Source of the DNA: a virus
Virus record (IMG/VR): IMGVR_UViG_3300045988_169928
Coordinates: 45,391 to 109,390 of that record
DNA length: 64,000 nt
Strand: one strand, 5' to 3'
The notes beneath the pieces are model-generated. The model was not told the origin of the DNA and searched no databases. It worked only from the letters and a program-made list of their open reading frames with translations. Shown piece after piece: positions 31,600 to 63,095 of the stretch. Each line of letters begins with the position of its first letter. Position 1 is the stretch's first letter. Made by a program: the position numbers and the translations under genes.

Positions 31600-31604
31600 A
31601 GTGT

Positions 31605-31640
31605 TGACATTGTAATTAATCTTTGATAATATATAAACCA
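31605..31640 (+). promoter_or_regulatory. sigma-70-like promoter upstream of tRNA genes
   Basis: TTGACA-ttgtaattaatctttga-TAATAT. Confidence 0.45.
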
Positions 31641-31789
31641 TCAGGCGGGAGAACCATCGGGTACAGGTGTTAAAATCTCCCTAAACTATCCAACTACCAT
31701 CAGCTAAGGCGTACCCCCTGACAAGAGTATTGCTGGTGGTTAAGTGACAATGCTAACAAGTTCCAGAAGCCTTATAGTTAGCATAATAA

Positions 31790-31862
31790 GCTAATTTAGC
31801 TCAATTGGCAGAGCGCCTGCCTTGTAAGCAGGAGGCTACAAGTTCGATTCTTGTAATTAGCA
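31790..31862 (+). tRNA. tRNA-Thr (anticodon UGU)
   Basis: Cloverleaf: acceptor GCTAATT/AATTAGC+A. Anticodon stem CCTGC/GCAGG with loop CTTGTAA. T-arm GTTCGATTC. Confidence 0.8.
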
Positions 31863-31926
31863 TTGTTGGCCATTTCTAACTTTCTCTTTTTTATCAATTC
31901 CCACTAGATCTTGTGGCCAACATTTT

Positions 31927-32015
31927 GGAGAATTACCCAAGTTGGTTGAAGGGGCACCCCTGCTAAGGGTGTAGGCCGGGAAACTGGTGCGAGAGTTCGA
32001 ATCTCTCATTCTCCG
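31927..32015 (+). tRNA. tRNA-Ser (anticodon GCU), long variable arm
   Basis: Acceptor GGAGAAT/ATTCTCC+G. Anticodon stem CACCC/GGGTG with loop CTGCTAA. Long extra arm. T-loop GTTCGAATC. Confidence 0.75.
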
Positions 32016-32120
32016 TTGCAACATCAACATATTGTTGAACCGTTGCAAACCTGACCGATATTTGATAATTTTTAGCCCGTAAAAATTTTGCAGTCGCTAT
32101 TAGTTCAGGTTGTTTAAGTG

Positions 32121-32155
32121 GGATAGTTATTAACTATCCTGCTTTTATTTATTAT
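32121..32155 (+). terminator. rho-independent terminator after tRNA cluster
   Basis: GGATAGTTATTAACTATCC hairpin plus TGCTTTTATTTATT. Followed by promoter TTGACA-N16-TACTAT at 32173-32204. Confidence 0.55.
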
Positions 32156-32223
32156 AATTTAAAAAAATGTATTGACAAAATGCTTGACCATGTTACTATT
32201 AAGTTTAAGGGGGTGGTCAAAAC

Positions 32224-36740: not shown

Positions 36741-37490
36741 ATGAAATATAAAGAATTTATTCAAGCAGTTGATTCATTAACTAATGAGGCTTTAGTAGCA
36801 AACAAGGAGGCTATTCCTTGGAAGGTCGATATTGATGATCAAGATGTTAAAGTAGTTAATCAAAAGACGGGTCAGCCATTGCTTAAAATCAGTAAACATA
36901 CTTATGGTACTATGCTAGTATATCAACTAACTGATTCAACAGCAGTTAGTATCTTTGAGGAGGCGGTTTTGCTTAATGAAACTCCTCTAGATGAACGTGA
37001 TGAAGTTGTTAATTACAATCCCTTACATGATTCCATTAACTTTTTGAAGGAAGTATCTAGCCAACTTACTCGAGGGTTGACCCAACAAAACTGGAACTCA
37101 AATGGGGAAGAATATCGGACGTTTTACTTTGTATGTTTCAAGTTGTGGGCAACCAAAGAATTTGTAACAGTTAATGGCCCACACTTACAAGGGTCTTTAT
37201 CATTAAAATGTAAGTCTACGGACACTTTTGAGGATAAGATTAAGAGTTTGATTCATATGGCTAACATATTCAAAGACGCCTTATCTTTGCGTGAAGAAAC
37301 CATTAATTCGGCTTTGGAAGTTCTAGATGACCATAAAGATGATCCATCACTCCAGTTTAGCATGGGTAGGATTATCATTAATAACAAGCATATTATTATC
37401 TCTACTGATTCTGGTGCCTACTTCATGTGGACAAATAAGCCAACCTATTTTGGATCACAAAAAAAGTTCCACGAAATCCTTGACGACTAA
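36741..37490 (+). CDS. hypothetical protein
   Basis: RBS AAGGAG. 249 aa. Confidence 0.5.
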   Translation: MKYKEFIQAVDSLTNEALVANKEAIPWKVDIDDQDVKVVNQKTGQPLLKISKHTYGTMLVYQLTDSTAVSIFEEAVLLNETPLDERDEVVNYNPLHDSINFLKEVSSQLTRGLTQQNWNSNGEEYRTFYFVCFKLWATKEFVTVNGPHLQGSLSLKCKSTDTFEDKIKSLIHMANIFKDALSLREETINSALEVLDDHKDDPSLQFSMGRIIINNKHIIISTDSGAYFMWTNKPTYFGSQKKFHEILDD

Positions 37491-38105
37491 ACTTTAGTAT
37501 GCTATTATAATAAATGTAAACTTGAAGTGGGTGAATAAGGGTCTTGCAAACCCGCCCCTCATGATTACCTGTAAAGCACCTAAGACGTGGTTAAATGGTA
37601 GCTTAACTATTTCAATTGGTAACAGGTAATAGTGTTACCAACTAGAGAAAAAAATCTAGGGTGGTGGTAATCATGGAAATTAGCTTGAGGATTTAGGGTA
37701 GCCACGGACTGGCTAACCACAATACTATACCCGTAGTTAAATCGCCTTGAACAAGCGAATGACCCAAAGCGGGAGGTCTCATTAAGGTAGTTACCGATGA
37801 AGCGTGGTAACACGTGTATAACAGTCCAGTGGTGTATGAGTAGCTAACGGTACATAAACAGCAAATTTATGTATATTACAATCTATGCTTACGCTTAGTG
37901 AAAGTTGGTGGGTACCGATCCCAGCCCAGCCTTGGCCATTTGCTATCAGAGCTGTTTGTTGACGAATAAATAGTAAGCCTGATAGGTGCTGTCACCTAAT
38001 AAAGTCTGTTTGCTGATATTCCACGTAAACCAATACGCAAGTTTATAAAAGAAGCTCACTACCCAATATGGGTGGTGGGCTTTTATTGTATATTACAATT
38101 GATAG
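37491..38105 (+). other. 615-bp GC-richer intergenic segment with multiple stable hairpins ending in a terminator-like hairpin (38056-38090); candidate structured ncRNA
   Basis: No credible ORF. 8-bp hairpin TGGTAACA-ggtaatag-TGTTACCA. TTACC-gatgaagcgt-GGTAA. Terminal GCTCACTACCCAATATGGGTGGTGGGCTTTTATT. Confidence 0.3.
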
Positions 38106-39099: not shown

Positions 39100-40038
39100 A
39101 TGGTAAAACGTAAAACAGATAAACAATTTAAACAAGAGGTCTTTGACCTAGTAGGTAATGAATATACATTCTTAGATACTTATGTTAATACTATGACTAA
39201 GATAAGAGTTAAACATAATAAATGTGGGAATACCTACGAGGTAACACCTGATAATTTTCTACATGGCAATCGTTGTTCATATTGTGCAGGTAATGCTAGG
39301 AAAACAGATAAACAATTTAAACAAGAAGTATTTGACCTAGTAGGTAGTGAATACACATTTTTAGATAAATATGTTAATAGTCAAACCAAGTTAAGGGTTA
39401 AGCATAATAATTGTGGAAATGTTTACAGGGTTATCCCCAATAATTTTCTTAGGGGTAAGCGTTGTTCATATTGTTATGGTAATACTAAGAAAACAGATAA
39501 ACAATTTAAACAAGAAGTCTTTGACCTAGTAGGTAATGAGTATACATTCTTAGATCCTTATGTTAGTAACGAGACTAAGATAAGAGTTAAACATAATAAA
39601 TGTGGAAATGTATATAAGGTAATACCCACTAATTTTCTTAGGGGTAAGCGTTGTCCTTTTTGCACCGACACCCCTAAAGGTGAACTTATTATCATTAAAA
39701 TTTTAGATAAGCTAGGTATTAATTATGATTACCAGAAAACGTTTGATGATCTGAAAGATGATAGGCTTTTATCCTATGATTTCTATCTTCCAGATCAGAA
39801 TATCCTAATTGAGTACCAAGGACTACAACATTACCAACCAATTGATTACTTTGGTGGAGAAACTAAGTTTAAAATCCAACAGAAACATGACCAGATGAAG
39901 TTGAATTATGCTAAAAAACATGGATACAATTTAATCTTAGTTCCATACACAGTAGATACTTTACCTAAGATTATGAAGGATCTGGCCAATGGTATTAAGG
40001 CTTACTATGGAAATCCAGAGGTTGGTTTCTACAACTAA
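39100..40038 (+). CDS. freestanding endonuclease (putative homing endonuclease): 3 tandem zinc-ribbon repeats + C-terminal Vsr/DUF559-like PD-(D/E)xK nuclease domain
   Basis: Three ~63-aa repeats KTDKQFKQEVFDLVG.EYTFLD.YVN..TK.RVKHNKCGN.Y.V.P.NFL.G.RC.YC. C-terminal YDFYLPDQNILIEYQGLQHYQP (Vsr-like D...E.QG.QH pattern). Ends with NGIKAYYGNPEVGFYN copied from the upstream gene. Confidence 0.65.
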   Translation: MVKRKTDKQFKQEVFDLVGNEYTFLDTYVNTMTKIRVKHNKCGNTYEVTPDNFLHGNRCSYCAGNARKTDKQFKQEVFDLVGSEYTFLDKYVNSQTKLRVKHNNCGNVYRVIPNNFLRGKRCSYCYGNTKKTDKQFKQEVFDLVGNEYTFLDPYVSNETKIRVKHNKCGNVYKVIPTNFLRGKRCPFCTDTPKGELIIIKILDKLGINYDYQKTFDDLKDDRLLSYDFYLPDQNILIEYQGLQHYQPIDYFGGETKFKIQQKHDQMKLNYAKKHGYNLILVPYTVDTLPKIMKDLANGIKAYYGNPEVGFYN

Positions 40039-40118: not shown

Positions 40119-41984
40119 ATGGCAACACTAACTAAATCATCTGAAACGATGAAGTTAATTTATCCTAAGGAAACTAATACACGTCCACACGTTGCAACAC
40201 AATACAATGATAACGCATTAAATAATGTTGCAGGTTCTTCGTCCAAGAATATCTTCCTATTAGGATCAGCAACAGAAGGCAACCCAGATAATATCTATGA
40301 AGTTAAATCATCTTCCCAAGCTCGGGCCATTTTTGGGTCTGGTGATCTGGTTGAAGCAATGGAATTAATCTGGAACCCAACAGGTAGCTACTACCAAAAT
40401 GGTGGGACAATCTATGCACAACGGGTTGAAAATGCAACCCAAGCTCAATTGGTCAAGGGGCCTTTAACTTTTACTTCTACTGTTTATGGGGCAAGTGCTA
40501 ATAAGGTATCTGTTTCATTTAACAAGAACCCTGTATCTGGGGCTTATGATTTCCATGTTGATTATGAACCCAAGATGTATTCCCAAACGTACATGAGTAT
40601 TGGTAATCTCTTTACGATTGGTTATGACCCGACTTCTTCCAATGTAACGGGGGCTGGGTATAAGATTACAGGTGATCTTTCTGGTGCCCAAACCTTTGAG
40701 ATTGTACTGAATACGTCTGGTGCGTCACAACCAGTCCTAACGATGGATTTAACCAGTACCGCTTACAATAACATTGGTAAGGTTATTACAGCAATTAGTG
40801 CATTACCTGGTTTTACCGTTACCACATTAAAGAGCTGTGCTAACATTGATTCAACCACTTTGGACTTGACCAGTGGTAGTGGTTATCTTACTTTGGGGAC
40901 TGGTTCCGCACCAACCACGATTACCGACTTCTATGGTGACTTACTTTACACCACTCGCTATGATGATTATGTAGGTATTAGTGTTAATCGTTTAGGGGCA
41001 CCAACAGGTGTAAGTGCCGAGGCTAGTGGTAGTGACACGGTAGTTACTGCTAATGCACAAGAGATCACTTTTGTACCATTTGACGCTACTAATCTTTCTG
41101 GCGGTAGCGATGGTAATGTACCAGTTTCATGGGCTGATAAGTTCCAGAACGTTCATGAGGTCAATGCTTACTACATTGTTCCATTGACGAGTGAAGAAAA
41201 CATTCACGCCGAACTGAAAGAGTTCTTAAATGAAGAAGAAATTCTTGGCTACAACTACTTTGGTTGGGTTGGTGGTGGATTTAATGAAAGTATGAGCGCC
41301 GCCATCAACCGGCAAACGGCTTTAAAGTCTGATCGTATTGCCTTAGTAGCTAACTCTGGGTATTACAATAGTCTCAGTGGGAAAGTCGTTCACGCACCTG
41401 CTTATCTAATGGCCGCCTATGTAGCGGGGGTTGCTAGTTCCTTGGGTGTTGGCGATTCTGTTACCCACAAATATCTGGAATTAACTAGTCTTGACCAAAA
41501 TTTCAATGGTGATGAATTGAACGCCCTTGATGATAATGGGGTTATCGCAATTGAGAAGGTAGTTAACCGCAACCAATCTGGTGGCTACCGGATTGTCGAA
41601 GATGTTACTACTTACAACTCCACGAATGAACCAGTTAAGAACCTAGTTTCACTTCGGGAAATCACCGACTACTTATTTGATGATCTTCGTATCTATCTTG
41701 AAGATACCTTTATCGGTTCCAGCGTAGTAAATACGACAGGGAGTTTAATCGCTAGTTTTATTGAAGCATTCTTGAAGCAAAAGGTTAGTGAAGGTCTGTT
41801 AGCAAGTTATGATCAGCAAAGCATTACTTGTACCATTGATGGTAATAGCGCCTACGTTGCCTTTAGTGCCGCACCTGCACGTGAAGTACGGACAATTCTC
41901 GTAAGTGGTACTTACACTAACTTCACTAGCACAACTTCTCAAGACAATTCTAATTATACTACCAATAATGGTGTAACTGGTTAA
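40119..41984 (+). CDS. tail sheath-like protein
   Basis: 621 aa. N-terminal NIFLLGSATEGNPDNIYEVKSSSQARAIFGSGDLVEAMELIW fits the sheath N-terminal pattern (VG.A..G....P..V.S...F..FG). C-terminal region conserved-looking. From memory of the P2 FI / XkdK-type sheath family. Confidence 0.55.
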   Translation: MATLTKSSETMKLIYPKETNTRPHVATQYNDNALNNVAGSSSKNIFLLGSATEGNPDNIYEVKSSSQARAIFGSGDLVEAMELIWNPTGSYYQNGGTIYAQRVENATQAQLVKGPLTFTSTVYGASANKVSVSFNKNPVSGAYDFHVDYEPKMYSQTYMSIGNLFTIGYDPTSSNVTGAGYKITGDLSGAQTFEIVLNTSGASQPVLTMDLTSTAYNNIGKVITAISALPGFTVTTLKSCANIDSTTLDLTSGSGYLTLGTGSAPTTITDFYGDLLYTTRYDDYVGISVNRLGAPTGVSAEASGSDTVVTANAQEITFVPFDATNLSGGSDGNVPVSWADKFQNVHEVNAYYIVPLTSEENIHAELKEFLNEEEILGYNYFGWVGGGFNESMSAAINRQTALKSDRIALVANSGYYNSLSGKVVHAPAYLMAAYVAGVASSLGVGDSVTHKYLELTSLDQNFNGDELNALDDNGVIAIEKVVNRNQSGGYRIVEDVTTYNSTNEPVKNLVSLREITDYLFDDLRIYLEDTFIGSSVVNTTGSLIASFIEAFLKQKVSEGLLASYDQQSITCTIDGNSAYVAFSAAPAREVRTILVSGTYTNFTSTTSQDNSNYTTNNGVTG

Positions 41985-41992
41985 TTTTAGGG

Positions 41993-42020
41993 TTGACATA
42001 TTGTAATAGTATGTTATGAT
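41993..42020 (+). promoter_or_regulatory. sigma-70-like promoter (TTGACA-N16-TATGAT)
   Basis: GGTTGACATATTGTAATAGTATGTTATGAT. Confidence 0.5.
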
Positions 42021-42078
42021 TAAGTTAATACTCCATATATAGTTTTGATGTCAGTCAAAGGACATTCCTAGTGGAAAG

Positions 42079-42117
42079 GCTGTCTTGTATTAGTTTACAA
42101 GGTGGTCTTTTTATTTT
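42079..42117 (+). terminator. rho-independent terminator (copy 1 of GGCTGTCTTGTATT...TTTTTATTTT module)
   Basis: CTTGTA-ttagtt-TACAAG hairpin then GTGGTCTTTTTATTTT. Confidence 0.45.
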
Positions 42118-42128
42118 AGAACAATCTA

Positions 42129-42157
42129 TTGACATTACCATATCAAAATGATACTAT
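42129..42157 (+). promoter_or_regulatory. sigma-70-like promoter (TTGACA-N17-TACTAT)
   Basis: TTGACATTACCATATCAAAATGATACTAT. Confidence 0.5.
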
Positions 42158-42274
42158 ATAGTTACATTAATTTAGTCGTTAAGTTAATGTTGGTTAAGTT
42201 TACTAACCCCTTGGTAGCAAAGTATTGTGACGAGACTTGTGCGGTAGGTAGCTTGACATTATTCAGTGCAAAGG

Positions 42275-42310
42275 CTGTCTTGTATTGGTTTACAGGACAG
42301 TTTTTATTTT
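42275..42310 (+). terminator. rho-independent terminator (copy 2, 10-bp stem)
   Basis: CTGTCTTGTA-ttggtt-TACAGGACAG plus TTTTTATTTT. Confidence 0.65.
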
Positions 42311-42330
42311 AGATTTTTTAACAAAAAGTA

Positions 42331-42360
42331 TTGACACTATCTCTACTTGTGGTATTATAT
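42331..42360 (+). promoter_or_regulatory. early promoter, family A copy 1 (TTGACA-N16-TATTATAT) with conserved leader GTTGTCGAAAGGATAAG
   Basis: About 90% identical to copies at 61136 and 61496. The ORF-track ORF 42331.. begins inside this promoter (TTG of TTGACA) and is spurious at its 5' end. Confidence 0.6.
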
Positions 42361-42405
42361 AGTTGTCGAAAGGATAAGGACAAAAAGAAAAGGAGAATCA
42401 TAATT

Positions 42406-42561
42406 ATGGATAAGAAGTACGAAGATTACAGTTTTGAAAACGACTTAGGTTATGACGAATACCTTTGGTATCGTGATCACCCAGAAGAAGCTAAGAAGGA
42501 AAAGGGATACGAGTTTGACCAATGGCAAAAGCAAGCCATCATGGACGACAAGGCAGAGTAG
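42406..42561 (+). CDS. small acidic early protein (51 aa)
   Basis: ATG at 42406 with RBS AAAAGGAGA. MDKKYEDYSFENDLGYDEY... Confidence 0.5.
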   Translation: MDKKYEDYSFENDLGYDEYLWYRDHPEEAKKEKGYEFDQWQKQAIMDDKAE

Positions 42562-42573
42562 GAGGTTTACCCA

Positions 42574-42798
42574 ATGGCAAAAGGATCAAGACGGTATTGG
42601 CATAAGTACATCGTTATGAGAGAGATGGCTCATAAAAATTTGTATCGAGGCATTGACACAGATTTGTCACTTCATGTCAACTTCGTTCGCGAGTTGAATC
42701 ACCTACCCAAGTATCACGGTACCAAGTACCGCGGACTAAAAAGGTGGTTGGCAAAAGAAAATTCAACAGCAAAATTAACTAAGGAGGACAAAAGATGA
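42574..42798 (+). CDS. small basic protein, paralogue of 43220..43441
   Basis: RRYWHKYIVMREMAHKN...LPKYHGTKYRGLKRWLAK versus RRSWHKYIVMNEKANKS...LPKYQGTKYRGQRRWLAK. Confidence 0.55.
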   Translation: MAKGSRRYWHKYIVMREMAHKNLYRGIDTDLSLHVNFVRELNHLPKYHGTKYRGLKRWLAKENSTAKLTKEDKR

Positions 42799-43223: not shown

Positions 43224-43441
43224 CAAAAATAAATCCTAGATCTAGACGTTCTTGGCACAAATACATTGTCATGAACGAGAAGGCTAACAAAAGCGTAGAT
43301 CGATGTGTTGACACGGATTGGCCAATGTTTATCAATTGGCAAGCGAAGCATATGCACCTACCAAAGTACCAAGGCACCAAGTACCGTGGACAAAGAAGAT
43401 GGTTGGCAAAAGGAAAGGTAACTAAAGGAGATAAAAAATGA
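43220..43441 (+). CDS. small basic protein, paralogue of 42574..42798
   Basis: See the paralogue at 42574..42798. Start overlaps the previous stop. Confidence 0.55.
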   Translation: MTKINPRSRRSWHKYIVMNEKANKSVDRCVDTDWPMFINWQAKHMHLPKYQGTKYRGQRRWLAKGKVTKGDKK

Positions 43442-44548: not shown

Positions 44549-45676
44549 TTGGAGGCGAAACCAATGAAGTTACTGGTTGCTAGTGATATTCACTTAACTA
44601 ATTACAACGCTTTTAACGAAGAAATTTCAGGCCAACCCCAAACTGGTTCCCGGCTTAACTATCTGTTAAGTGCTTTATCTTATTTTTTCTGTTATGGTCG
44701 AGATCGTGGTATTATGCACTATGTAATTAATGGTGACTTATTTGATAAGCGCCAACGGGATAACCCAGCTACCCTAGCTTATATCCGGGCTTGGCTTGCT
44801 GGCTGTGCGATTAATTTACCTAAGGAAGCGAAGGTATATTTTAATGTTGGTAATCATGACGAGTTAGGACGTGACGTATACCCAAATTCGTTAGTTGATT
44901 TTCCTTACTTAGATAGCCGATTTGTTGTTGTTAATAAAGTTCAGTTGTTTAGTCTGAATGATGATTCTAAATTATTCTTTGTTCCCTACACCGAGAATGT
45001 AGAGCAGAGTAAGAAGGATATTAAAGAATCAATTAAGTACATGAAAGGGCCAACTACTGTCTTTGCACACACTGGTGTTGAAGGCGGTGTCCAAGGACGT
45101 TGGCAACATAGACTAGAGGGTGCTTATAGTTTATCTGATCTAGGATATGACCAACCTAATGTTAAAGCCGTTATCTTGGGACATTATCACAACCGTTACT
45201 TTATTAAGAAACAACCCAAGCCAGCTTGGTATGTTGGAGATTTACTGGGTTTATCTTTTAATGATTTAAATAAAGATGGTAGTGGGGCTGACCGGGGCTT
45301 TGATGAGATTGATACATTAACTGGTAAGCATACCTTTGTTAATCTGTCTAAGCTATACCCTACCTTTAATCAATTTGATTATGATGAAAGCAAGGTATCA
45401 GCATATCAGGAATTAGCTAAGGATAATTACCTCAAGTTAGTGTTTAGTGACAATAATACCCTGTCAGAGTTCATGAGTGGCCCATACAAGGACTTTAACC
45501 AAGCTCATGTACAATTATCTATTAGCCCTGCTAAAACGTCTGAAAAAGCCTTAGACGAGGAATTAGAACACAATGCAAGTGACTATGAATTAGTTAAGTC
45601 CTATTGTGAGGATAAATATCCCGAGGTTACAAAGTCCGCACTCAACTACCTAATGAAAGCAAGGGAAAGTGATTGA
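44549..45676 (+). CDS. SbcD/Mre11-like metallophosphoesterase nuclease
   Basis: LVASDIHL, INGDLFD, NVGNHD, GHYH: calcineurin-like phosphoesterase motifs I-V in order. Confidence 0.75.
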   Translation: MEAKPMKLLVASDIHLTNYNAFNEEISGQPQTGSRLNYLLSALSYFFCYGRDRGIMHYVINGDLFDKRQRDNPATLAYIRAWLAGCAINLPKEAKVYFNVGNHDELGRDVYPNSLVDFPYLDSRFVVVNKVQLFSLNDDSKLFFVPYTENVEQSKKDIKESIKYMKGPTTVFAHTGVEGGVQGRWQHRLEGAYSLSDLGYDQPNVKAVILGHYHNRYFIKKQPKPAWYVGDLLGLSFNDLNKDGSGADRGFDEIDTLTGKHTFVNLSKLYPTFNQFDYDESKVSAYQELAKDNYLKLVFSDNNTLSEFMSGPYKDFNQAHVQLSISPAKTSEKALDEELEHNASDYELVKSYCEDKYPEVTKSALNYLMKARESD

Positions 45677-48779: not shown

Positions 48780-50813
48780 ATGGCAGATAAAGATAAAGAT
48801 AGTAAATCAAGTTCTAGTTCTAATAACGCTAGTCTTTACGCTAACATGATGAATATCCCACTTGCGGTTGCCGATGGTGATGATATTCCAATGCAAAATC
48901 TGGTTGAGTTTGATATATGGGAAAACTTAGATGAAAGTTACCCTCCTGATACTGGGACTTCTAATCCATATACAAACTACAATGGTTCCATCTTACAAAT
49001 GATTAAAGATGTATCATCGCAACCATTTAACGAAATGTTCTGGACAAATGTACGTGGGATTCCAACTTTTGTATATCGACCAACCCCTTTTGACCCCGAG
49101 AATTGGAAGGGTCTAACTACTAACACCATTCCAACTGAATTAATTACAGATATTAGCATTGAAAATAGTGATAGTGAGCAATCAGCAGTCTTTAAGATTA
49201 CCCCTACCCAAAACCTTGGGGACACCACTTATTCAGGAGGAATCAATGCTAATCTTTATCCTTTGACTAACTTAGATCTAGTTCGCCGTTATGGCTATAA
49301 GCTCATGGAAGCTAATACAGATTATTTTAATGGTCAAACACTAGAATTAGATAGTCAGTCACATACGCCCGGAACCACCTATGCAGATAGTGAAGCGATG
49401 AAGGGTTACACGGATAAGACGGCTCAACTACACTATCCCCCATATACTAGCATTGTGGACGCTTTCTATCTTACTAGTGGGCGTAAAGGTTCTAATGCTA
49501 ACTTGTCAATTCCAAAAGAGTATGGTGGTAGTACCGCTTATAATGCGGTAATGAATGCGTTAAAGGCAACCAATTCTAATGTGGCGTTCTTTAATTCAAT
49601 TAGTAGTTATGGTATTACTAAGGAGCAGGCTAATTCATTGTGGCTAAGTAAAAACTCAATGAGTACCACTAAGTATCTTAGTATCATTGCCCCGAATTAT
49701 GTACCAACGACTACTAATTTAGCTAAAGACACTACTTACTTGAAGTCATATAAAGCCATGAAACAAAACCCTAAAAAGGCGGCCAGTGAATTAATTGGCT
49801 TATTGGGGTATTCGATTGGTAGTAAACAGGCTTATGAAATGGTTGAGTATGCAATTAATAATGGGGGAACCATTTCAGAAAGTGCCTACAACCAGATTAG
49901 AAGCCAATATAAGATCACTGATACCGAAGATGGGGTTAGTGGATCTCCAATGAATGGTAATGATTCCGTTAATTTCTTCTTTGCTAGGTATAGTGAGAAG
50001 CTGTTTAATTGGTATGCGGATAACGCTAAGTTTTATTCAGGAACCATAACCTTTGCTGGGCTTGAAAGTGAGCAAACCACTTTTAAAGAGAATAACTTTA
50101 TTGGTACTCGGATCTACTTTTATGATCGAGCAAATGGAACTTACTGGGAATTTTATTGTGAGGGTGAACAGTACAGCTTTGACTTTTCTAATGGTTTAAT
50201 GGTTACTCTTACCATTACTCGAGGGGTTCCTTTAGGTGATGATATTACCAATACTAATAAGCGTTTCTCGAATGAATGGTCTTTTTGGGGCACCTTTACC
50301 AACTTTGTTGGTGGGTACTTTGGGGAGCAGACCTTAGCGGCGGCGATTGAGAATGCCACACCAGATTCAGGTAGTTCTAGTTCATCTTCTGGTAGTGATG
50401 GTGATATTGTTTCCTTTGCTAAGAAGGTGGAGGGTAAGAATTGGTCTTACTCCCAAGCTAATCGAACTAATTTTGGGGATATTGGTAAACCAAAGGATAG
50501 TGGGTCAGCAGACTGTTCAAGTTTTGTATGGTATGTTTTAAAATCGTGTGGTTATCAAACAAGTGATAGTCCGTGGACAACTTTTTCAATGGAACCATAT
50601 CTCGACCAAATTAATAATGACAATTCTAAAGCTGGTGATGTGGTCATCAATAATGCTAATCCACACACTGGGATTCTTTTAGAAAAATGGAAAGGGCCTG
50701 ATACCAAAGTAATTAATTGTATCGATAGACACCCATCTGTGTGCGAGGGCGGATACCAAAGTATGTTTGGCAATAGCTCCCCATCAACAGGAATCTTCCG
50801 TGCTAAGAAGTAA
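48780..50813 (+). CDS. large protein with C-terminal NlpC/P60-type cysteine peptidase domain (candidate virion-associated peptidoglycan hydrolase)
   Basis: MADKDKDSKSSSSSNNAS leader. C-terminal GSADCSSFVWYVLKSCGY (NlpC/P60 catalytic Cys context) and later H (PHTGIL). Confidence 0.6.
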   Translation: MADKDKDSKSSSSSNNASLYANMMNIPLAVADGDDIPMQNLVEFDIWENLDESYPPDTGTSNPYTNYNGSILQMIKDVSSQPFNEMFWTNVRGIPTFVYRPTPFDPENWKGLTTNTIPTELITDISIENSDSEQSAVFKITPTQNLGDTTYSGGINANLYPLTNLDLVRRYGYKLMEANTDYFNGQTLELDSQSHTPGTTYADSEAMKGYTDKTAQLHYPPYTSIVDAFYLTSGRKGSNANLSIPKEYGGSTAYNAVMNALKATNSNVAFFNSISSYGITKEQANSLWLSKNSMSTTKYLSIIAPNYVPTTTNLAKDTTYLKSYKAMKQNPKKAASELIGLLGYSIGSKQAYEMVEYAINNGGTISESAYNQIRSQYKITDTEDGVSGSPMNGNDSVNFFFARYSEKLFNWYADNAKFYSGTITFAGLESEQTTFKENNFIGTRIYFYDRANGTYWEFYCEGEQYSFDFSNGLMVTLTITRGVPLGDDITNTNKRFSNEWSFWGTFTNFVGGYFGEQTLAAAIENATPDSGSSSSSSGSDGDIVSFAKKVEGKNWSYSQANRTNFGDIGKPKDSGSADCSSFVWYVLKSCGYQTSDSPWTTFSMEPYLDQINNDNSKAGDVVINNANPHTGILLEKWKGPDTKVINCIDRHPSVCEGGYQSMFGNSSPSTGIFRAKK

Positions 50814-50815
50814 TT

Positions 50816-50848
50816 AAAAAAGACTGGTATTAACCAGTCTTTTTTGTT
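50816..50848 (+). terminator. terminator, family C copy 1 (GACTGGT-ATTA-ACCAGTC + T-run)
   Basis: AAAAAGACTGGTATTAACCAGTCTTTTTTGTT. Followed by promoter TTGGAT-N16-TATAAT at 50857-50884. Confidence 0.6.
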
Positions 50849-50870
50849 ATATGGTATTGGATTTTAGACT

Positions 50871-51107
50871 ATGTATGATATAATTAAACCATCAATTAGG
50901 AAAGTTAGAGGTGAAATCATAATGGATTCTAAAGACAAAATCATAATGAACTCTAAAGGAGAAATTATAATGGATTCTAAATGGAGTGCCTTAGGAAAAG
51001 GCTTAGCGATCTGTGGGATTTGTGGTCTTATTGTAGCAGAACTATATTTTAAGGCTCCGGGCTGGGTATTTGGTTGGTCACTCTTTGCACTAATTATTTC
51101 GTTATAA
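50871..51107 (+). CDS. small membrane protein preceded by triplicated RBS-ATG repeat
   Basis: 24-nt unit GAAATCATAATGGATTCTAAAGAC x3 (50913-50984). The hydrophobic C-terminal 45 aa (MDSKWSALGKGLAICGICGLIVAELYF...) is the likely product. Confidence 0.45.
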   Translation: MYDIIKPSIRKVRGEIIMDSKDKIIMNSKGEIIMDSKWSALGKGLAICGICGLIVAELYFKAPGWVFGWSLFALIISL

Positions 51108-51165
51108 TAAAAGAAGTAATTAAAAAGGACTGGTTAATACCAGCCCTTTTATCTTATAAAAGCTA

Positions 51166-51193
51166 TTGACTTTTAGGTTATGTATGCTATACT
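51166..51193 (+). promoter_or_regulatory. promoter, family C copy 2 (TTGACT-TTTAGGTTATGTATGC-TATACT), after terminator 51122-51155
   Basis: Conserved with copy 3 at 52239-52267. The ORF-track ORF starting at 51166 begins in this promoter. Confidence 0.55.
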
Positions 51194-51225
51194 TGAACCA
51201 TCAATTATGGAAAGAGGTAGCTAAT

Positions 51226-53076: not shown

Positions 53077-54363
53077 ATGACAAAACGTAAAACAGATGAG
53101 GAGTTCCAGCAAGAAATTTACAGTCTAGTAGGCGATGAATACACATTTCTAGATAAATATGTTAATGCAAGGACAAAACTAAGGGTAAAACATAACGAGT
53201 GTAATTTTGTATATTCCGTTTCTCCCCACAACTTTTTAACAGGCAAACGTTGTCCCAATTGTTTTAAGACACCCAAGAAAAGTGATATTCAGTTTCAGCA
53301 TGAAGTTCATACTTTAGTGGGTGATGAATACACATTTTTAGATCCTTATGTTAACAATAAAACAAAGCTAAGGGTAAAGCATAATGTATGTGGAAATGTC
53401 TATAAAGTTAGGGCTTCATCTTTTTTAGATGGTAGTCGTTGTCCATATTGCGCAGGACTGGTTAAGAAAACAGATAAACAGTTCAAACAAGAAATTTACA
53501 ATTTAGTAAATGATGAGTACACATTCCTAGATTCTTATGTTAATACTAATACCAAGTTAAGGGTTAAACACAATAAATGTGGGAATGCCTATGAGGTTAC
53601 ACCCTCTAAGTTTTTATCTGGTGAGCGCTGTCCTTACTGTGCAGGACTTGTTAAGAAAACAGATACCCAGTTCAAACATGAAGTTAACATTTTGGTGGGC
53701 GATGAGTACACATTCCTAGATAGATATGTTAATGCTTATACAAAAATTAGGGTTAAACACAACAAATGTAATTTTATATATTCTGTTGCTCCTACTAATT
53801 TCCTTAGGGGTAGTCGCTGTCCTCATTGCTATCTAGTTAATAAATCAAAGTCGGATAATCTCTTTAAACAGGAGGTTTCTAGCCTTGTTGGCGATGAATA
53901 CACAATATTAGATACTTATACTAATGCGGAATCCAAGATTAGGTTAAGACATAATAAATGTGGAAATGTTTATAAAACTCGACCTCGTACTTTTCTTGAA
54001 GGGTATCGTTGCCCATATTGTAATAGTCCTAAGGGGGAAACTGTTATTACTAAGCTGTTAGATACTTTTAGTATTGATTATGAGTATCAAAAAACCTTTG
54101 AGGATCTAAAAGATAAGTCATATTTGTCTTATGATTTCTATATTCCAGACCAGAACATCTTAATTGAATATCAAGGGATTCAACATTATCAACCTGTAGA
54201 CCTTTTTGGTGGAGATGATAGATTTATTAATCAACAAAAGCATGACCAGATGAAGTTAGACTATGCTAAAGATCATGGTTATAATTTAATTGCTGTTCCC
54301 TACACAGAAGATACTTTCTCTAAGATTAAAAAGTATCTGACTAAGCATGGACTAAAGAAGTAG
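53077..54363 (+). CDS. freestanding endonuclease paralogue: 5 zinc-ribbon repeats + Vsr/DUF559-like nuclease domain
   Basis: Five repeats of K.D.QF..E...LVGDEYTFLD.YVN..TK.RVKHN.C...Y.V....FL.G.RCP.C. C-terminal YDFYIPDQNILIEYQGIQHYQP. Confidence 0.65.
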   Translation: MTKRKTDEEFQQEIYSLVGDEYTFLDKYVNARTKLRVKHNECNFVYSVSPHNFLTGKRCPNCFKTPKKSDIQFQHEVHTLVGDEYTFLDPYVNNKTKLRVKHNVCGNVYKVRASSFLDGSRCPYCAGLVKKTDKQFKQEIYNLVNDEYTFLDSYVNTNTKLRVKHNKCGNAYEVTPSKFLSGERCPYCAGLVKKTDTQFKHEVNILVGDEYTFLDRYVNAYTKIRVKHNKCNFIYSVAPTNFLRGSRCPHCYLVNKSKSDNLFKQEVSSLVGDEYTILDTYTNAESKIRLRHNKCGNVYKTRPRTFLEGYRCPYCNSPKGETVITKLLDTFSIDYEYQKTFEDLKDKSYLSYDFYIPDQNILIEYQGIQHYQPVDLFGGDDRFINQQKHDQMKLDYAKDHGYNLIAVPYTEDTFSKIKKYLTKHGLKK

Positions 54364-58595: not shown

Positions 58596-58745
58596 ATGAG
58601 TAGTGCTGGAATCAAGGCAGATGTTAAGGCTTTTCTTAAATCTAAGCAAGTCAAGACCATCGTGCTTCCTAGTGGTAAGGAAGTCAAGTTGCAAAACGCA
58701 AAGACAAGTGATCTAATTTCATACGCAAGTAAGTTGGGATATTAA
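58596..58745 (+). CDS. small basic protein (50 aa) behind a G9 tract / RBS
   Basis: AAAGGGGGGGGGCAAAAACATG. MSSAGIKADVKAFLKSKQVKTIVLPSGKEVKLQNAKTSDLISYASKLGY. Not in the ORF track. Confidence 0.35.
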   Translation: MSSAGIKADVKAFLKSKQVKTIVLPSGKEVKLQNAKTSDLISYASKLGY

Positions 58746-59636: not shown

Positions 59637-60809
59637 TTGAGAAGAAAAACAAATGATCAGTTTCAACAGGAAGTTTACGATCTTGTGAGAGATGAATATA
59701 TATTCTTAGATACTTATGTTAATAAACGTACAAAAATTAAAGTTAAACATAACAAATGCGGTCATATCTATAAGGTAACTCCTGGTGACTTTCTTTGTGG
59801 TAGGCGCTGTCCTTATTGTTTTGGTAATTTAAAAAAGACAGACGCTCAATTCAAACATGAAGTTTACACTTTGGTAGGTGATGAATATGCTTTCTTAGAA
59901 CCATATGTTAATAATAAGACTAAAATTAAGGTTAGGCATAATAAATGTGGCAATATCTATGAAGTAAAGCCTGATGGTTTCTTGCGTGGTAATCGTTGCC
60001 CATACTGTGCAAGTACAGCTATAAAAACAAATGAGCAGTTTCAACAGGAGGTTTATGATCTCGTTGGAGATGAGTATTTATTTTTAGAATCCTATCAAAA
60101 AGCACTTACAAAAATTAAGGTAAAGCATAATAAATGCGGTAGTATCTATAAAGTCAAGCCTAGTGATTTTCTACATGGCGAACGTTGCCCATATTGTAAT
60201 GGTAATGCTAAGAAAACAGACGTCCAGTTTAAAAAGGAAGTTTATAATCTAGTTGGTGATGATTATAAATTCCTAGATGTCTATGTTAATAATGTTGCTA
60301 AACTTAGGGTAAAACACAATAAATGTGGAAACATTTACGAAGTTAGACCTAGTGATTTTCTCCGTGGCACCCGTTGTCCTTACTGTAATACCCCTAAAGG
60401 TGAGGTTATCATTAATAAAATTCTAAAGTCATTAGGGACCAAGTATGAGTATCAGAAAACGTTTGATGATCTTGTAGATAAGTCCTATCTTTCTTATGAT
60501 TTCTATATCCCCAGTCAATCCATCTTAATTGAATATCAAGGGATTCAACATTACCAGCCTACTGATTATTTTGGTGGAGAAGCTACCTTTAAGAGACAGC
60601 AAAAACATGATAAGATGAAGCTAGACTATGCTAAGTCTCATGGTTATAAATTAATTACTGTACCATATACGGAAGATACTTTCTCTAAGATTAAGGGGTA
60701 TTTGATTAAGCATGGGTTAGCTGATGAAAATACTTCGGTAGATACAGATACACTCCATCGACTGTTTGACGAGAATAAAGAAGTGATGGATTGGCTAAAG
60801 GACAAGTGA
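59637..60809 (+). CDS. freestanding endonuclease paralogue: 4 zinc-ribbon repeats + Vsr/DUF559-like nuclease domain
   Basis: TTG start with RBS AAGGTGA. Four repeats. C-terminal YDFYIPSQSILIEYQGIQHYQP. Extra acidic tail. Confidence 0.65.
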   Translation: MRRKTNDQFQQEVYDLVRDEYIFLDTYVNKRTKIKVKHNKCGHIYKVTPGDFLCGRRCPYCFGNLKKTDAQFKHEVYTLVGDEYAFLEPYVNNKTKIKVRHNKCGNIYEVKPDGFLRGNRCPYCASTAIKTNEQFQQEVYDLVGDEYLFLESYQKALTKIKVKHNKCGSIYKVKPSDFLHGERCPYCNGNAKKTDVQFKKEVYNLVGDDYKFLDVYVNNVAKLRVKHNKCGNIYEVRPSDFLRGTRCPYCNTPKGEVIINKILKSLGTKYEYQKTFDDLVDKSYLSYDFYIPSQSILIEYQGIQHYQPTDYFGGEATFKRQQKHDKMKLDYAKSHGYKLITVPYTEDTFSKIKGYLIKHGLADENTSVDTDTLHRLFDENKEVMDWLKDK

Positions 60810-61074: not shown

Positions 61075-61084
61075 TAGATAGAAG

Positions 61085-61114
61085 GGCCTAGTAATTACTA
61101 GGTCTTTTTATTTT
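61085..61114 (+). terminator. terminator family B copy 1 (GGCCTAGTAATTACTAGGTC + TTTTTATTTT)
   Basis: Near-identical copy at 61446-61475. Each is followed by a family A promoter (61136-61165 and 61496-61525). Confidence 0.65.
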
Positions 61115-61135
61115 AGGTTTTTTCTATAAAAACTG

Positions 61136-61165
61136 TTGACATCATCTCTACTTGTGTTATTATAT
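61136..61165 (+). promoter_or_regulatory. early promoter family A copy 2 (TTGACA-N16-TATTATAT + GTTGTCGAAAGGATAAG leader)
   Basis: Near-identical to 42331-42395. Confidence 0.6.
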
Positions 61166-61209
61166 AGTTGTCGAAAGGATAAGAACAAAAGAAAAGGAGG
61201 AATATAATT

Positions 61210-61428
61210 ATGTGGTTATTCTTTTTTCTGTTTGGATTCGGTGTAGTAGAAATCTGTTACATTAATAAAGATGTAAAAACGATTCGTGATGACTTATCAT
61301 ACCTAGTTGATCTACTTGAACAGAACCCTGACTTGGTTAAGAAAGCGACAGATCAGGCACAATCTAATCAGGAACAATCTAGGAGTAATGAAGATTTAAT
61401 GGGTTCACGTAGGGAACTATATAAGTAA
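61210..61428 (+). CDS. small membrane protein
   Basis: RBS AAAAGGAGG. MWLFFFLFGFGVVEICY TM segment then polar tail. Confidence 0.5.
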   Translation: MWLFFFLFGFGVVEICYINKDVKTIRDDLSYLVDLLEQNPDLVKKATDQAQSNQEQSRSNEDLMGSRRELYK

Positions 61429-61495
61429 TGGAATCATAATGAGAAGGTCTAGTAATTACTAGGTCTTTTTATTTTAGTTATTTTTATAAAAACTA

Positions 61496-61525
61496 TTGAC
61501 ATTATCTCTGCCTGTGTTATTATAT
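61496..61525 (+). promoter_or_regulatory. early promoter family A copy 3
   Basis: TTGACATTATCTCTGCCTGTGTTATTATAT. Confidence 0.55.
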
Positions 61526-61559
61526 AGATGTTAAAGGAATAGAATAAAAGGAGATTATT

Positions 61560-62084
61560 ATGACTAAGAAATACAAGCTAACTCATCACACTAAGGAAGT
61601 AGATGGTCATACCCTTCACCGAATTAAGGCTCTAAAGTCCTTTGGTGATGTAACGAAAGGAGATCTAGGCGGTTGGGTTGAAAGTTACCGTAATCTATCT
61701 CAATCAGATTATGCTTGGGTCTATGACAAAGCTAAAGTTTATGGTGACGCCCGAGTTTTTGATAATGCAAAAGTTAATGATCATGCCCGAGTTTACGGTG
61801 ACGCTTGGGTTTACAAAAACGCTTGGGTCTATGGTCACGCTCGAGTTAGTGGTGCCGCAGGTGTGTCAGGAAATGCTTGGGTTCATGGTCATGCTAAAGT
61901 TTATGATAATGCTAAAGTTTGGGGTAATGTCCTAGTTTATGACCATGCTCATGTTTGCGGGAACGCTATGATTTACGATAATGATATGGTTTATGGTCGT
62001 ACTAAGGTTTATAATCATACTCAAGTATATGGTAAAGATTGGGTTTGTTCTCATATCCAACCTTGGGATATTGATAATAAATAA
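61560..62084 (+). CDS. hexapeptide-repeat (beta-helix-like) protein, short paralogue
   Basis: Conserved ~55-aa N-domain MTKKYKLTHHTKEVDGHTLHRIKALKSFGDVTKGDLGGW, then ~18 hexapeptides [NHD]A.V.[GDN]. Confidence 0.6.
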   Translation: MTKKYKLTHHTKEVDGHTLHRIKALKSFGDVTKGDLGGWVESYRNLSQSDYAWVYDKAKVYGDARVFDNAKVNDHARVYGDAWVYKNAWVYGHARVSGAAGVSGNAWVHGHAKVYDNAKVWGNVLVYDHAHVCGNAMIYDNDMVYGRTKVYNHTQVYGKDWVCSHIQPWDIDNK

Positions 62085-62096
62085 AGGAGGTTTCTT

Positions 62097-63095
62097 ATGA
62101 CTAAGAAGTATGAATTAACAGATAATACTAAGGAAATATTGGGTCACACCCTCCATCAAATTAAGGCTTTAAAAGCGTTTGGTGATGTAAAGAAGGGTGA
62201 TCTAGGGGGTTGGATTGAAGATTACTCTAACCTCTCCCAATCCGGTAATGCTTGGGTCTATGACAATGCTAAAGTTTATAAGAATGCTGTAGTTTATGGT
62301 CAGGCCCAGATCCGTGGTAATGCATGGGTCTATAATCACACTAAGGTTTTAGATAATGCTAAAGTTTGTGGTGAGGCTTGTATCTATGATCATGCTAGAG
62401 TATTAGATAATGCCCAAGTTGGTGGTAATGCTTGGGTTTATAATAATGCTTATGTTGTAGGCAACGCCAAAGTTGCAGGTAAGGCCCAGATTTATGGTAA
62501 TGCTTGTGTCTATGATAATGCGATAGTACGTGGCCATGCCGAGATTTATGACCATGCTTCGGTTTATGGCAACGCTTGGGTTTTTGATGATACCAAAGTT
62601 TGGGGTTGTGCGTCTATTACAGGTAAGACTAAAGTATATGGGGACGCTCGAATCTATGGCAGTGCTAAGGTTCATGGTAACGCCATCGTATGTGGCTATG
62701 CTCACGTTTGTGGTAATACCCATGTCTATGATAATGCTAAAGTCTATGGTGATAGTATCTTGCAAGGACGAATTAACATTCGGGAAGATGATGATATTAA
62801 GGACAAGTATTCTTATCTAATCTTTAATAACACTTGGTCATCAGGGCGGCAGTTTGTTTACGTCCTATCTAATCAGCGATGGCACGTTGGTTGCTTTAAT
62901 GGAACAGGGGAAGAACTAATTAAGAAAGCATACAAGGATTCGGAATTATCGGGAAAGATGTACGAGATGTATGTTCATTTTGCTGAACAAGCGGTTAAGA
63001 CCCAAGCTAAGATCCAACAGCAACAACAATCACACAAGAAATTCCCTCTTTGGTTAGATTCATATCCAAGTTGGCGAGACTGGTTAGGACTATAG
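62097..63095 (+). CDS. hexapeptide-repeat (beta-helix-like) protein, long paralogue with C-terminal globular domain
   Basis: Same N-domain, ~29 hexapeptides (NAWVYD NAKVYK NAVVYG ...), then a ~100-aa C-terminal domain. Confidence 0.6.
   Translation: MTKKYELTDNTKEILGHTLHQIKALKAFGDVKKGDLGGWIEDYSNLSQSGNAWVYDNAKVYKNAVVYGQAQIRGNAWVYNHTKVLDNAKVCGEACIYDHARVLDNAQVGGNAWVYNNAYVVGNAKVAGKAQIYGNACVYDNAIVRGHAEIYDHASVYGNAWVFDDTKVWGCASITGKTKVYGDARIYGSAKVHGNAIVCGYAHVCGNTHVYDNAKVYGDSILQGRINIREDDDIKDKYSYLIFNNTWSSGRQFVYVLSNQRWHVGCFNGTGEELIKKAYKDSELSGKMYEMYVHFAEQAVKTQAKIQQQQQSHKKFPLWLDSYPSWRDWLGL

Follow-up and report, generated by a model that had tools for sequence, protein, structure and literature searches.

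Two promoter-to-terminator units downstream of the tail sheath gene of a Limosilactobacillus fermentum phage as candidate non-coding RNA genes

Non-coding RNAs (ncRNAs) are known from the virus family Herelleviridae, and at least one has a dedicated early promoter. In Staphylococcus phage K, a member of the genus Kayvirus, both small and long ncRNAs have been described, including lnc001, which is transcribed from an early promoter of its own (PMC9241854). The same phage encodes a large ROOL/GOLLD-like RNA near its tRNA genes (PMC9241854). Here, we describe two short promoter-to-terminator units, most likely new and clade-restricted candidate ncRNAs, in a 64,000-nucleotide stretch of viral DNA (positions 45,391 to 109,390 of the IMG/VR record IMGVR_UViG_3300045988_169928; hereafter, the window). 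The window is 93–94% identical in DNA to Lactobacillus phage LfeInf (NC_029058; Herelleviridae, Hopescreekvirus) and represents a virulent myovirus of Limosilactobacillus fermentum. Both units lie in a 421-bp gap between the tail sheath gene (stop at 41984) and a gene for a 51-amino-acid protein (start at 42406); the corresponding gap is empty in the annotation of LfeInf. An original prediction, made by a model from the letters alone, had proposed the units as duplicated genes for phage small RNAs (sRNAs). The phage K RNAs and the units come from the same virus family, and a ROOL RNA and two tRNAs are likewise arranged in the window. The two sets of RNAs nevertheless lack sequence similarity (a phage database search with the units matched LfeInf alone), and the phage K RNAs were seen by RNA sequencing, whereas the window units are known from sequence prediction.

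Several other RNAs offer partial parallels. The OOP-type RNA of phage lambda is short, has a dedicated promoter and an intrinsic terminator, and acts in cis as an antisense RNA to cII. The units are like OOP in being short promoter-to-terminator RNAs; unlike OOP, they are antisense to nothing, and no complementary phage target was found for them. MicL and DapZ, which are sRNAs of the 3' untranslated region (3'UTR) type with promoters of their own, are paralleled by unit 1, whose terminator is common to it and the upstream gene; its sequence is present both as the sheath 3'UTR and as a separate predicted transcript. However, the unit 1 promoter lies after the stop codon and not inside coding sequence, and no Hfq-type features or targets are known for the unit. 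A further parallel concerns RNAs directed against CRISPR (clustered regularly interspaced short palindromic repeats) systems. Racr solitary repeat units and rAcrIIA1 of Streptococcus phage Javan584 are taken up by Cas proteins instead of the real guides. Like these, the units are phage-encoded, about 100 nt in size and equipped with a promoter of their own in a non-coding gap, the position expected of an RNA anti-CRISPR. What defines Racr and rAcrIIA1, however, is an evident homology with the host repeat or trans-activating CRISPR RNA (tracrRNA), whereas the units vary too much between close relatives.

The three promoters that the original prediction had placed at 41993, 42129 and 42331 were all confirmed as near-consensus, + strand elements with a TG-extended -10. 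P1 (41993–42020), which precedes unit 1, consists of TTGACA, a 16-nt spacer and TG-n-TATGAT (11 of 12 consensus matches), and P2 (42129–42157), which precedes unit 2, of TTGACA, a 17-nt spacer and TG-a-TACTAT (10 of 12). P3 (42331–42358), the promoter of the downstream gene block, combines TTGACA, a 16-nt spacer and TATTAT with TG before the -10 (11 of 12). By a stricter scan, sites of this quality number only about a dozen in the 64 kb, and two others immediately precede the tRNA pair and the ROOL RNA, respectively. For comparison, relatives were collected via contigs that encode proteins closely related to the sheath protein and to the 51-amino-acid protein, giving 11 contigs or records, which are referred to below by handles such as L027 where they must be told apart. 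Among the relatives compared, the -35 hexamers of all three promoters and the -10 hexamers of P2 and P3 show zero changes. Across the four full-length relatives, P1 has a constant -35, a -10 altered at one tolerated position and a variable spacer; across five relatives, both P2 hexamers are constant, with two to four changes in the spacer. P1 and P2 provide each unit with the host-type promoter of its own that is expected of a stand-alone small ncRNA gene.

The same layout recurs elsewhere in the window. The tRNA cassette (31604–32199) is arranged as the two gap units are, with a promoter (31604), tRNA-Thr (31790–31862), tRNA-Ser (31926–32016), a terminator (32116–32144) and the next promoter (32172). 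The ROOL RNA (Rfam RF03087; 37503–38048; 124.6 bits against a gathering score of 99.1), located where the LfeInf annotation is blank between gp033 and gp032, has its own TTGACG/TG-TATTAT promoter (37480–37508) and a strong terminator (38050–38084). As the tRNA pair and the ROOL RNA are each fronted by a promoter and closed by a terminator, a promoter-ncRNA-terminator layout is demonstrably used by this phage.

Each unit also ends in an intrinsic terminator, the second feature expected of a stand-alone small ncRNA gene. Terminators had been proposed at 42079–42117 and 42275–42310, and both were borne out, the former by folding and the latter by a terminator scan. T1 (42075–42117, + strand) comprises a 5' arm (42075–42089), a loop (42090–42095), a 3' arm (42096–42110) and a U-run extending to 42117. 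Its paralogue T2 (42270–42310, + strand) has a 15-bp stem (42270–42305), a 6-nt loop and a UUUUUAUUUU tail. T1 falls outside the rules of the scan, yet it folds as a stem of 15–20 bp followed by UUUUUAUUUU, with a folding energy of -18.7 kcal/mol on the + strand versus -5.1 kcal/mol on the - strand; because its stem contains four G-U pairs, the hairpin is predicted only in + strand RNA. When T1 and T2 were pooled (11 sequences), the 15-bp stem was paired in 98.8% of cells, although 9 of the 15 pairs are variable, two of them on both sides. The covariation score of this stem was equalled by 3 of 500 shuffles, and sliding the 3' partner by one to three columns lowered pairing to about 50%. G-U pairs are numerous in the pooled stems, so that both hairpins are predicted only in + strand RNA. 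Relative to L027, there are 5 changes in the 43 positions of T1 and 9 in the 43 of T2.

The original prediction had also stressed sequence modules common to both units. The shared 3' module is real: a 46-nt repeat (42070–42115 and 42265–42310) is 80% identical between its copies, and its 25-mer core occurs twice in the window against an expectation of 0. In L031, a relative without units, the sheath terminator has an exact 14-mer, CTTGCATTAGTTTG, plus flanks in common with T1 of L027. Given this homology, the module appears to be the sheath gene's own terminator, present in two copies. Moreover, since the window has no other terminator between the sheath gene and P1, the sheath mRNA is expected to terminate at T1, with unit 1 forming its 3' end. 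Thus, the claim of duplication holds for the terminator module of about 46 nt but not for the units themselves, which are not duplicates of each other. The proposed 5' motif fared less well. TAAGTTAAT is indeed present at 42021–42029 and 42180–42188, but the copies are not equivalent and do not form a common element. The unit 1 copy covers positions -6 to +3, where it is the promoter discriminator and straddles the start, with ATAGTT as its counterpart in P2 and P3; the unit 2 copy forms the 3' arm of the 5' hairpin (+17 to +25). The copies are identical in the window only, as the relatives carry TAGGTTAAT in unit 1 and TAAATTAAT or TAAATTATT in unit 2. This 5' resemblance is a coincidence.

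With the start placed 7 nt after the -10, the predicted RNAs measure about 91 nt for unit 1 (42027–42117, + strand) and about 147 nt for unit 2 (42164–42310, + strand), in agreement with the 95 and 150 nt first estimated. Folding of both units is roughly twice as strong on the + strand as on the - strand. Unit 1 (-24.1 kcal/mol, z = -3.4; reverse strand -11.3) is laid out as a 16-nt unpaired 5' stretch containing ACUCC, a small hairpin (42043–42060), an unpaired linker containing UUCCU and T1, and the layout was alike in all five haplotypes when each was folded separately. Across these haplotypes, the 5' stretch reads ACUCC, CCUCC or CUUCC and the linker CUCCU or UUCCU, while the small hairpin is weak (6–7 bp). 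Such pyrimidine motifs are rare in the genome (CCTCC, 0.28 per kb; CTCCT, 0.42 per kb). Unit 2 (-42.6 kcal/mol, z = -3.8; reverse strand -22.1) is laid out as a 5'-terminal hairpin (42164–42190), a long central hairpin (approximately 42193–42257), a 12-nt linker and T2. The 5' hairpin has 11 bp and begins exactly at the predicted +1. Its pairing is kept through one U-A to A-U swap and two G-U/A-U changes, which is consistent with selection, although the comparison covers only three haplotypes and is not significant. The central hairpin is kept in five close haplotypes, in the consensus as well as in the per-haplotype folds.

Coding capacity in the gap was assessed from the open reading frame (ORF) list and the relatives. 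On the opposite strand, the list has nothing encoded. The only gap ORF (42148–42312) starts inside the extended -10 of P2, has no Shine-Dalgarno sequence upstream and reads on across the terminator and, in L027, also across P3. In LfeInf, a 4-nt insertion shortens it to 35 codons, and a 2-nt indel in L027 shifts its frame (indels of 4, 3 and 2 nt overall), and the internal ATG at 42187 is ATA in L027. By eye, amino-acid identity to L027 is roughly half over the first 40 or so residues, versus 90% for the sheath protein. In unit 1, a 7-codon ORF loses its ATG in LfeInf. Neither predicted transcript was found to contain a conserved ORF equipped with start codon and ribosome binding site, and a coding hypothesis was rejected, as start, ribosome binding site, frame and conservation all fail. 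The non-coding nature that had been proposed for the units is upheld: with no conserved ORF, + strand structure, and hexamers and stems that are kept, both look like non-coding transcription units.

The relatives differ in how many units they carry. Both units are present in the window, LfeInf, L026, L027 (identical to L028 and L029 over the aligned gap) and L035, which together represent five distinct haplotypes. In L034, unit 2 alone is present; a clean deletion that runs from an ATGGT repeat within the P1 spacer to another immediately downstream of T1 has removed unit 1, which indicates that the units behave as separable modules. P3, by contrast, is found in every relative, including those without units. 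More distant relatives of the sheath protein (59% identity) have the sheath gene followed by a plain terminator and tail genes, with no syntenic unit after the sheath gene. On present sequence data, the units have been found only in LfeInf-like phages. Two side observations concern these contigs. The public contig L031 ends, at 1982–2028, in the Nextera adapter CTGTCTCTTATACACATCTCCGAGCCCACGAGAC, an assembly artefact by which the sequence beyond the sheath terminator is lost. In addition, relatives with 90% sheath identity carry a gene of the TnpB type (OrfB_IS605, Cas12f1-like_TNB; 390 amino acids) a few kilobases upstream of the sheath gene (L027, 1889–3061; L028, 2044–3216; L029, 1336–2508), a gene that is absent from the window and LfeInf.

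Taken together, we give a probability of roughly 0.55 to the reading that the gap holds two independent, optional ncRNA cassettes, transcribed early by the host RNA polymerase into RNAs of about 91 and 147 nt. On this reading, the host sigma-A RNA polymerase would initiate at P1 and P2 as soon as infection begins and terminate at T1 and T2, releasing the two RNAs. Unit 1 would share its terminator with the sheath gene and would also form the 3' end of the late sheath mRNA. In Firmicutes, as established for mRNA decay in Bacillus, a stem-loop at the very 5' end together with a terminator hairpin stabilizes an RNA against 5'-end-dependent decay. With hairpins at +1 and at its terminator, the unit 2 RNA would be shielded from decay in this way and should accumulate. 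The likeliest activity, taken as a working mechanism, would be short-seed base pairing, in which the exposed YUCC and CUCCU of unit 1 and the CCCCUU or CUCCUU of unit 2 would cover host or phage ribosome binding sites. We infer early synthesis, stability and any target or seed of the unit RNAs from these features. The original prediction had taken duplicated promoter-body-terminator units as the hallmark of phage sRNAs; the layout is indeed compatible with such RNAs, but it is not diagnostic, as small protein genes use it at 61076–61563.

A number of results weigh against this reading. Several relatives (L030, L036/L037, L031, L040 and L039) have no units and only a terminator followed by P3, with a different gene upstream in L039. 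The four-fold degenerate sites of the sheath gene next to the gap served as the neutral reference (divergence from the window of 12–15% for LfeInf, L026, L034 and L035, with LfeInf at 0.12, and of 30% for L027); measured against them, the unit bodies evolve about as fast as neutral sequence or a little more slowly. Over 54 positions, the unit 1 body differs from the window at 8 in LfeInf, 6 in L026, 16 in L027 and 5 in L035; for unit 2, the differences are 8/116, 13/113, 36/117 and 10/113 in the same order, and 11/112 in L034. This comparison is to be read with the caveat that modules recombine, so that the gap and the sheath gene may differ in history. In folds of L027, the most divergent haplotype, the central hairpin of unit 2 was not recovered. 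The resemblance of the unit 1 pyrimidine motifs to an anti-Shine-Dalgarno sequence was spotted post hoc. Target prediction, which had been suggested as a check, gave no support: in a seed duplex scan of 125 phage translation-start regions in the window, none beat shuffled seeds. Finally, the database searches returned little. In Rfam, scanning the whole window at the gathering threshold and 41900–42500 at E values up to 10 gave nothing relevant in the gap. A pattern scan of IMG/VR recovered LfeInf alone, pattern scans of metagenomes and genomes gave 11 loci that BLAST showed to be chance pattern matches in every case, and a plasmid database search for the units had no match.

Other searches can be summarized briefly. 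The search of other phage genomes that had been proposed was carried out, with the single phage match given above. The best Rfam matches in 41900–42500 (E values of 3 to 10) are unrelated eukaryotic or staphylococcal families far under their gathering scores, and the units match no Rfam 15 family, including tracrRNA, CRISPR-DR, ROOL, riboswitches and leaders. The unit bodies have no paralogue in the window or LfeInf, and literature searches with the unit sequence gave nothing relevant. In whole-window duplex scans, long non-specific duplexes predominate. A 10-nt perfect match near 58660 on the - strand is of the order expected by chance. A replication origin primed by short transcripts was considered and rejected: the turning point of the cumulative GC skew coincides with the flip in gene orientation near 30 kb rather than with the gap at 42 kb, and no other observation favours such an origin.

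Among the alternatives, the chief one sees the units as empty cassettes left by module shuffling: the genome is composed of interchangeable terminator-promoter-leader modules that as a rule flank small genes, recombination among them would have duplicated the sheath terminator and stranded two promoters without genes, and any RNA made would have no specific function, with selection acting on transcription control alone. In this case, the terminators would block late read-through from the sheath gene, and the promoters would add read-through transcription to P3. We regard this as possible, though on balance improbable. It accommodates the combination of near-neutral bodies with conserved hexamers and terminator stems, the presence of zero, one or two units per relative, the homology of T1 and T2 to the plain sheath terminator of L031 and the use of the promoter-gene-terminator layout for small ORFs at 61076–61563. 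Traces of shuffling also exist, as the unit 1 body resembles the P3 -10 and leader (TATATAGTT..GTC..AAAGGA; 8 of 1000 shuffles score equally), and the T2–P3 stretch of L026, L034 and L035 is nearer to the window's copy at 61106 than to the window's own, which suggests module exchange. However, strong promoters without purpose should decay, yet these are untouched in five haplotypes with up to 30% neutral divergence; the +1 hairpin of unit 2 keeps its pairing through compensatory change; and a single terminator would suffice to insulate the sheath gene. Selection maintains the features of the gap at the level of promoters and terminators. If the P1 and P2 transcripts were 5' leaders, read through conditionally with the help of an antiterminator protein or a put-like RNA that modifies RNA polymerase, all three promoters would serve the block that begins at 42406. 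Three tandem promoters in one direction fit such an arrangement, as do the two hairpins of unit 2 right after its promoter, which by layout inference only recall the put type. No conserved pairing competes with either terminator, however, the sole 7-bp candidate (ACGAGAC/GUCUUGU) being lost in L026, L034 and L035, and no conserved alternative structure of the kind expected of an attenuator or riboswitch leader was found in the units. The terminators are long and conserved with good U-runs, P3 alone drives the genes from 42406 in relatives without units, and Rfam gave no riboswitch, EAR or leader family match. We therefore consider attenuation strongly doubtful.

The two remaining alternatives are a decoy RNA and a small protein. 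As RNA decoys against host defence, the units would be early accessory mimics of the CRISPR repeat or tracrRNA of L. fermentum, or would act on other RNA-sensing immunity; if so, their presence or absence and the fast divergence of their bodies would reflect an arms race and not neutrality. Optional units that head a block of small genes, each behind a strong promoter, occupy the usual setting of anti-defence functions. The unit 1 stretch GUUUUGAUGUCAG..UCAAAG of the window also loosely recalls the start of a type II-A repeat. CRISPR systems are common among L. fermentum strains (type I in 54%, type II-A in 41%; PMC7191730), and a small RNA mimicking the whole Cas9 guide has been reported from a Streptococcus phage (bioRxiv 10.64898/2026.06.03.729762). 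Set against this, no tracrRNA or CRISPR-DR match appeared in Rfam at E values up to 10, and the GUUUU start is found in the window only, with ACUUU or GCUUU in the relatives. About 9 of the 36 positions of the candidate stretch are changed in L027, and such variability among close relatives is too high for mimicry of a fixed repeat. Likewise, the 'nexus-like' AAGGCU is the base of the terminator stem and reads AAAACU in two haplotypes. A decoy role is accordingly quite unlikely. Most improbable of all is a small hydrophobic protein of 54 amino acids encoded by the unit 2 ORF. The ORF does exist, a gene caller predicts a 74-amino-acid gene in L029, and two of the indels that separate the window from L027 have lengths divisible by three; its ATG within the P2 promoter, the lack of a Shine-Dalgarno sequence, the frame-breaking indels and the poor protein conservation all speak against translation.

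Upstream of the gap lies the tail sheath gene (40119–41984, + strand; 621 amino acids), identified from the ORF list, from homologues with PF04984 and from its LfeInf counterpart gp031, which is annotated as tail sheath. Downstream lies the early-type 51-amino-acid gene (42406–42561, + strand; from the ORF list), the counterpart of LfeInf gp030, which is the first small gene after P3 and the first of a run of small genes reaching to a helicase gene. P3 and its GGA-rich leader (42331–42405, + strand) are not part of the two units and belong to a multi-copy family of promoters plus leaders that drive small early-type genes. The full module occurs at 42301–42398, 61106–61203 and 61466–61563, with many further copies in LfeInf, and is composed of the terminator tail TTTTTATTTTAG, a TTGACA promoter and a highly conserved start region and leader (TATATAGTTGTCGAAAGGATAAGRACAAAA..AAGGAG) with three GGA motifs. 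That its conservation extends from the -10 as far as about +30 points to an operator or translational control element common to many early-type small genes, and copies appear to be exchanged among relatives. The phage's own single-gene cassettes (terminator, P3-type promoter, leader and small ORF) have the same architecture as the two units and the same TTTTTATTTTAG terminator-promoter junction; unlike these cassettes, the units lack an ORF, a ribosome binding site and a GGA-rich leader.

Further repeats were observed in the window. Within two small genes downstream of P3, a 62-nt direct repeat (42700–42761 and 43355–43416; 85% identical) points to paralogous small proteins in the early-type block. 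At 50895–50981, three tandem 24-nt repeats, ATAATGGATTCTAAAG-like and with an in-frame ATG, stand at the start of a small hydrophobic ORF, flanked by two copies of another terminator-promoter module (50804–50903 and 51110–51212). Tandem repeats of 189 nt (63 codons; 63–81% identical) are found in three separate genes (39112–39789, 53089–53766 and 59646–60323), the first set lying in a gene for 312 amino acids that adjoins the sheath gene upstream; the products look like paralogous, repeat-containing, fibre-like proteins. Finally, a long run of 18-nt (6-codon) periodic repeats, GGTAATGCTTGGGTCTAT-like, at 61689–62750 within a + strand ORF suggests a hexapeptide-repeat protein of the beta-helix type.

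To our knowledge, small RNAs of virulent phages of Gram-positive bacteria have barely been studied, and none has been characterized for Lactobacillus phages. L. fermentum is both a contaminant of fuel-ethanol fermentation and a probiotic species. If the RNAs are made, the natural relatives with two, one or no units would allow a direct comparison of their effect on infection of this host. Independently of their function, the gap illustrates how a phage genome is assembled from exchangeable terminator-promoter modules.

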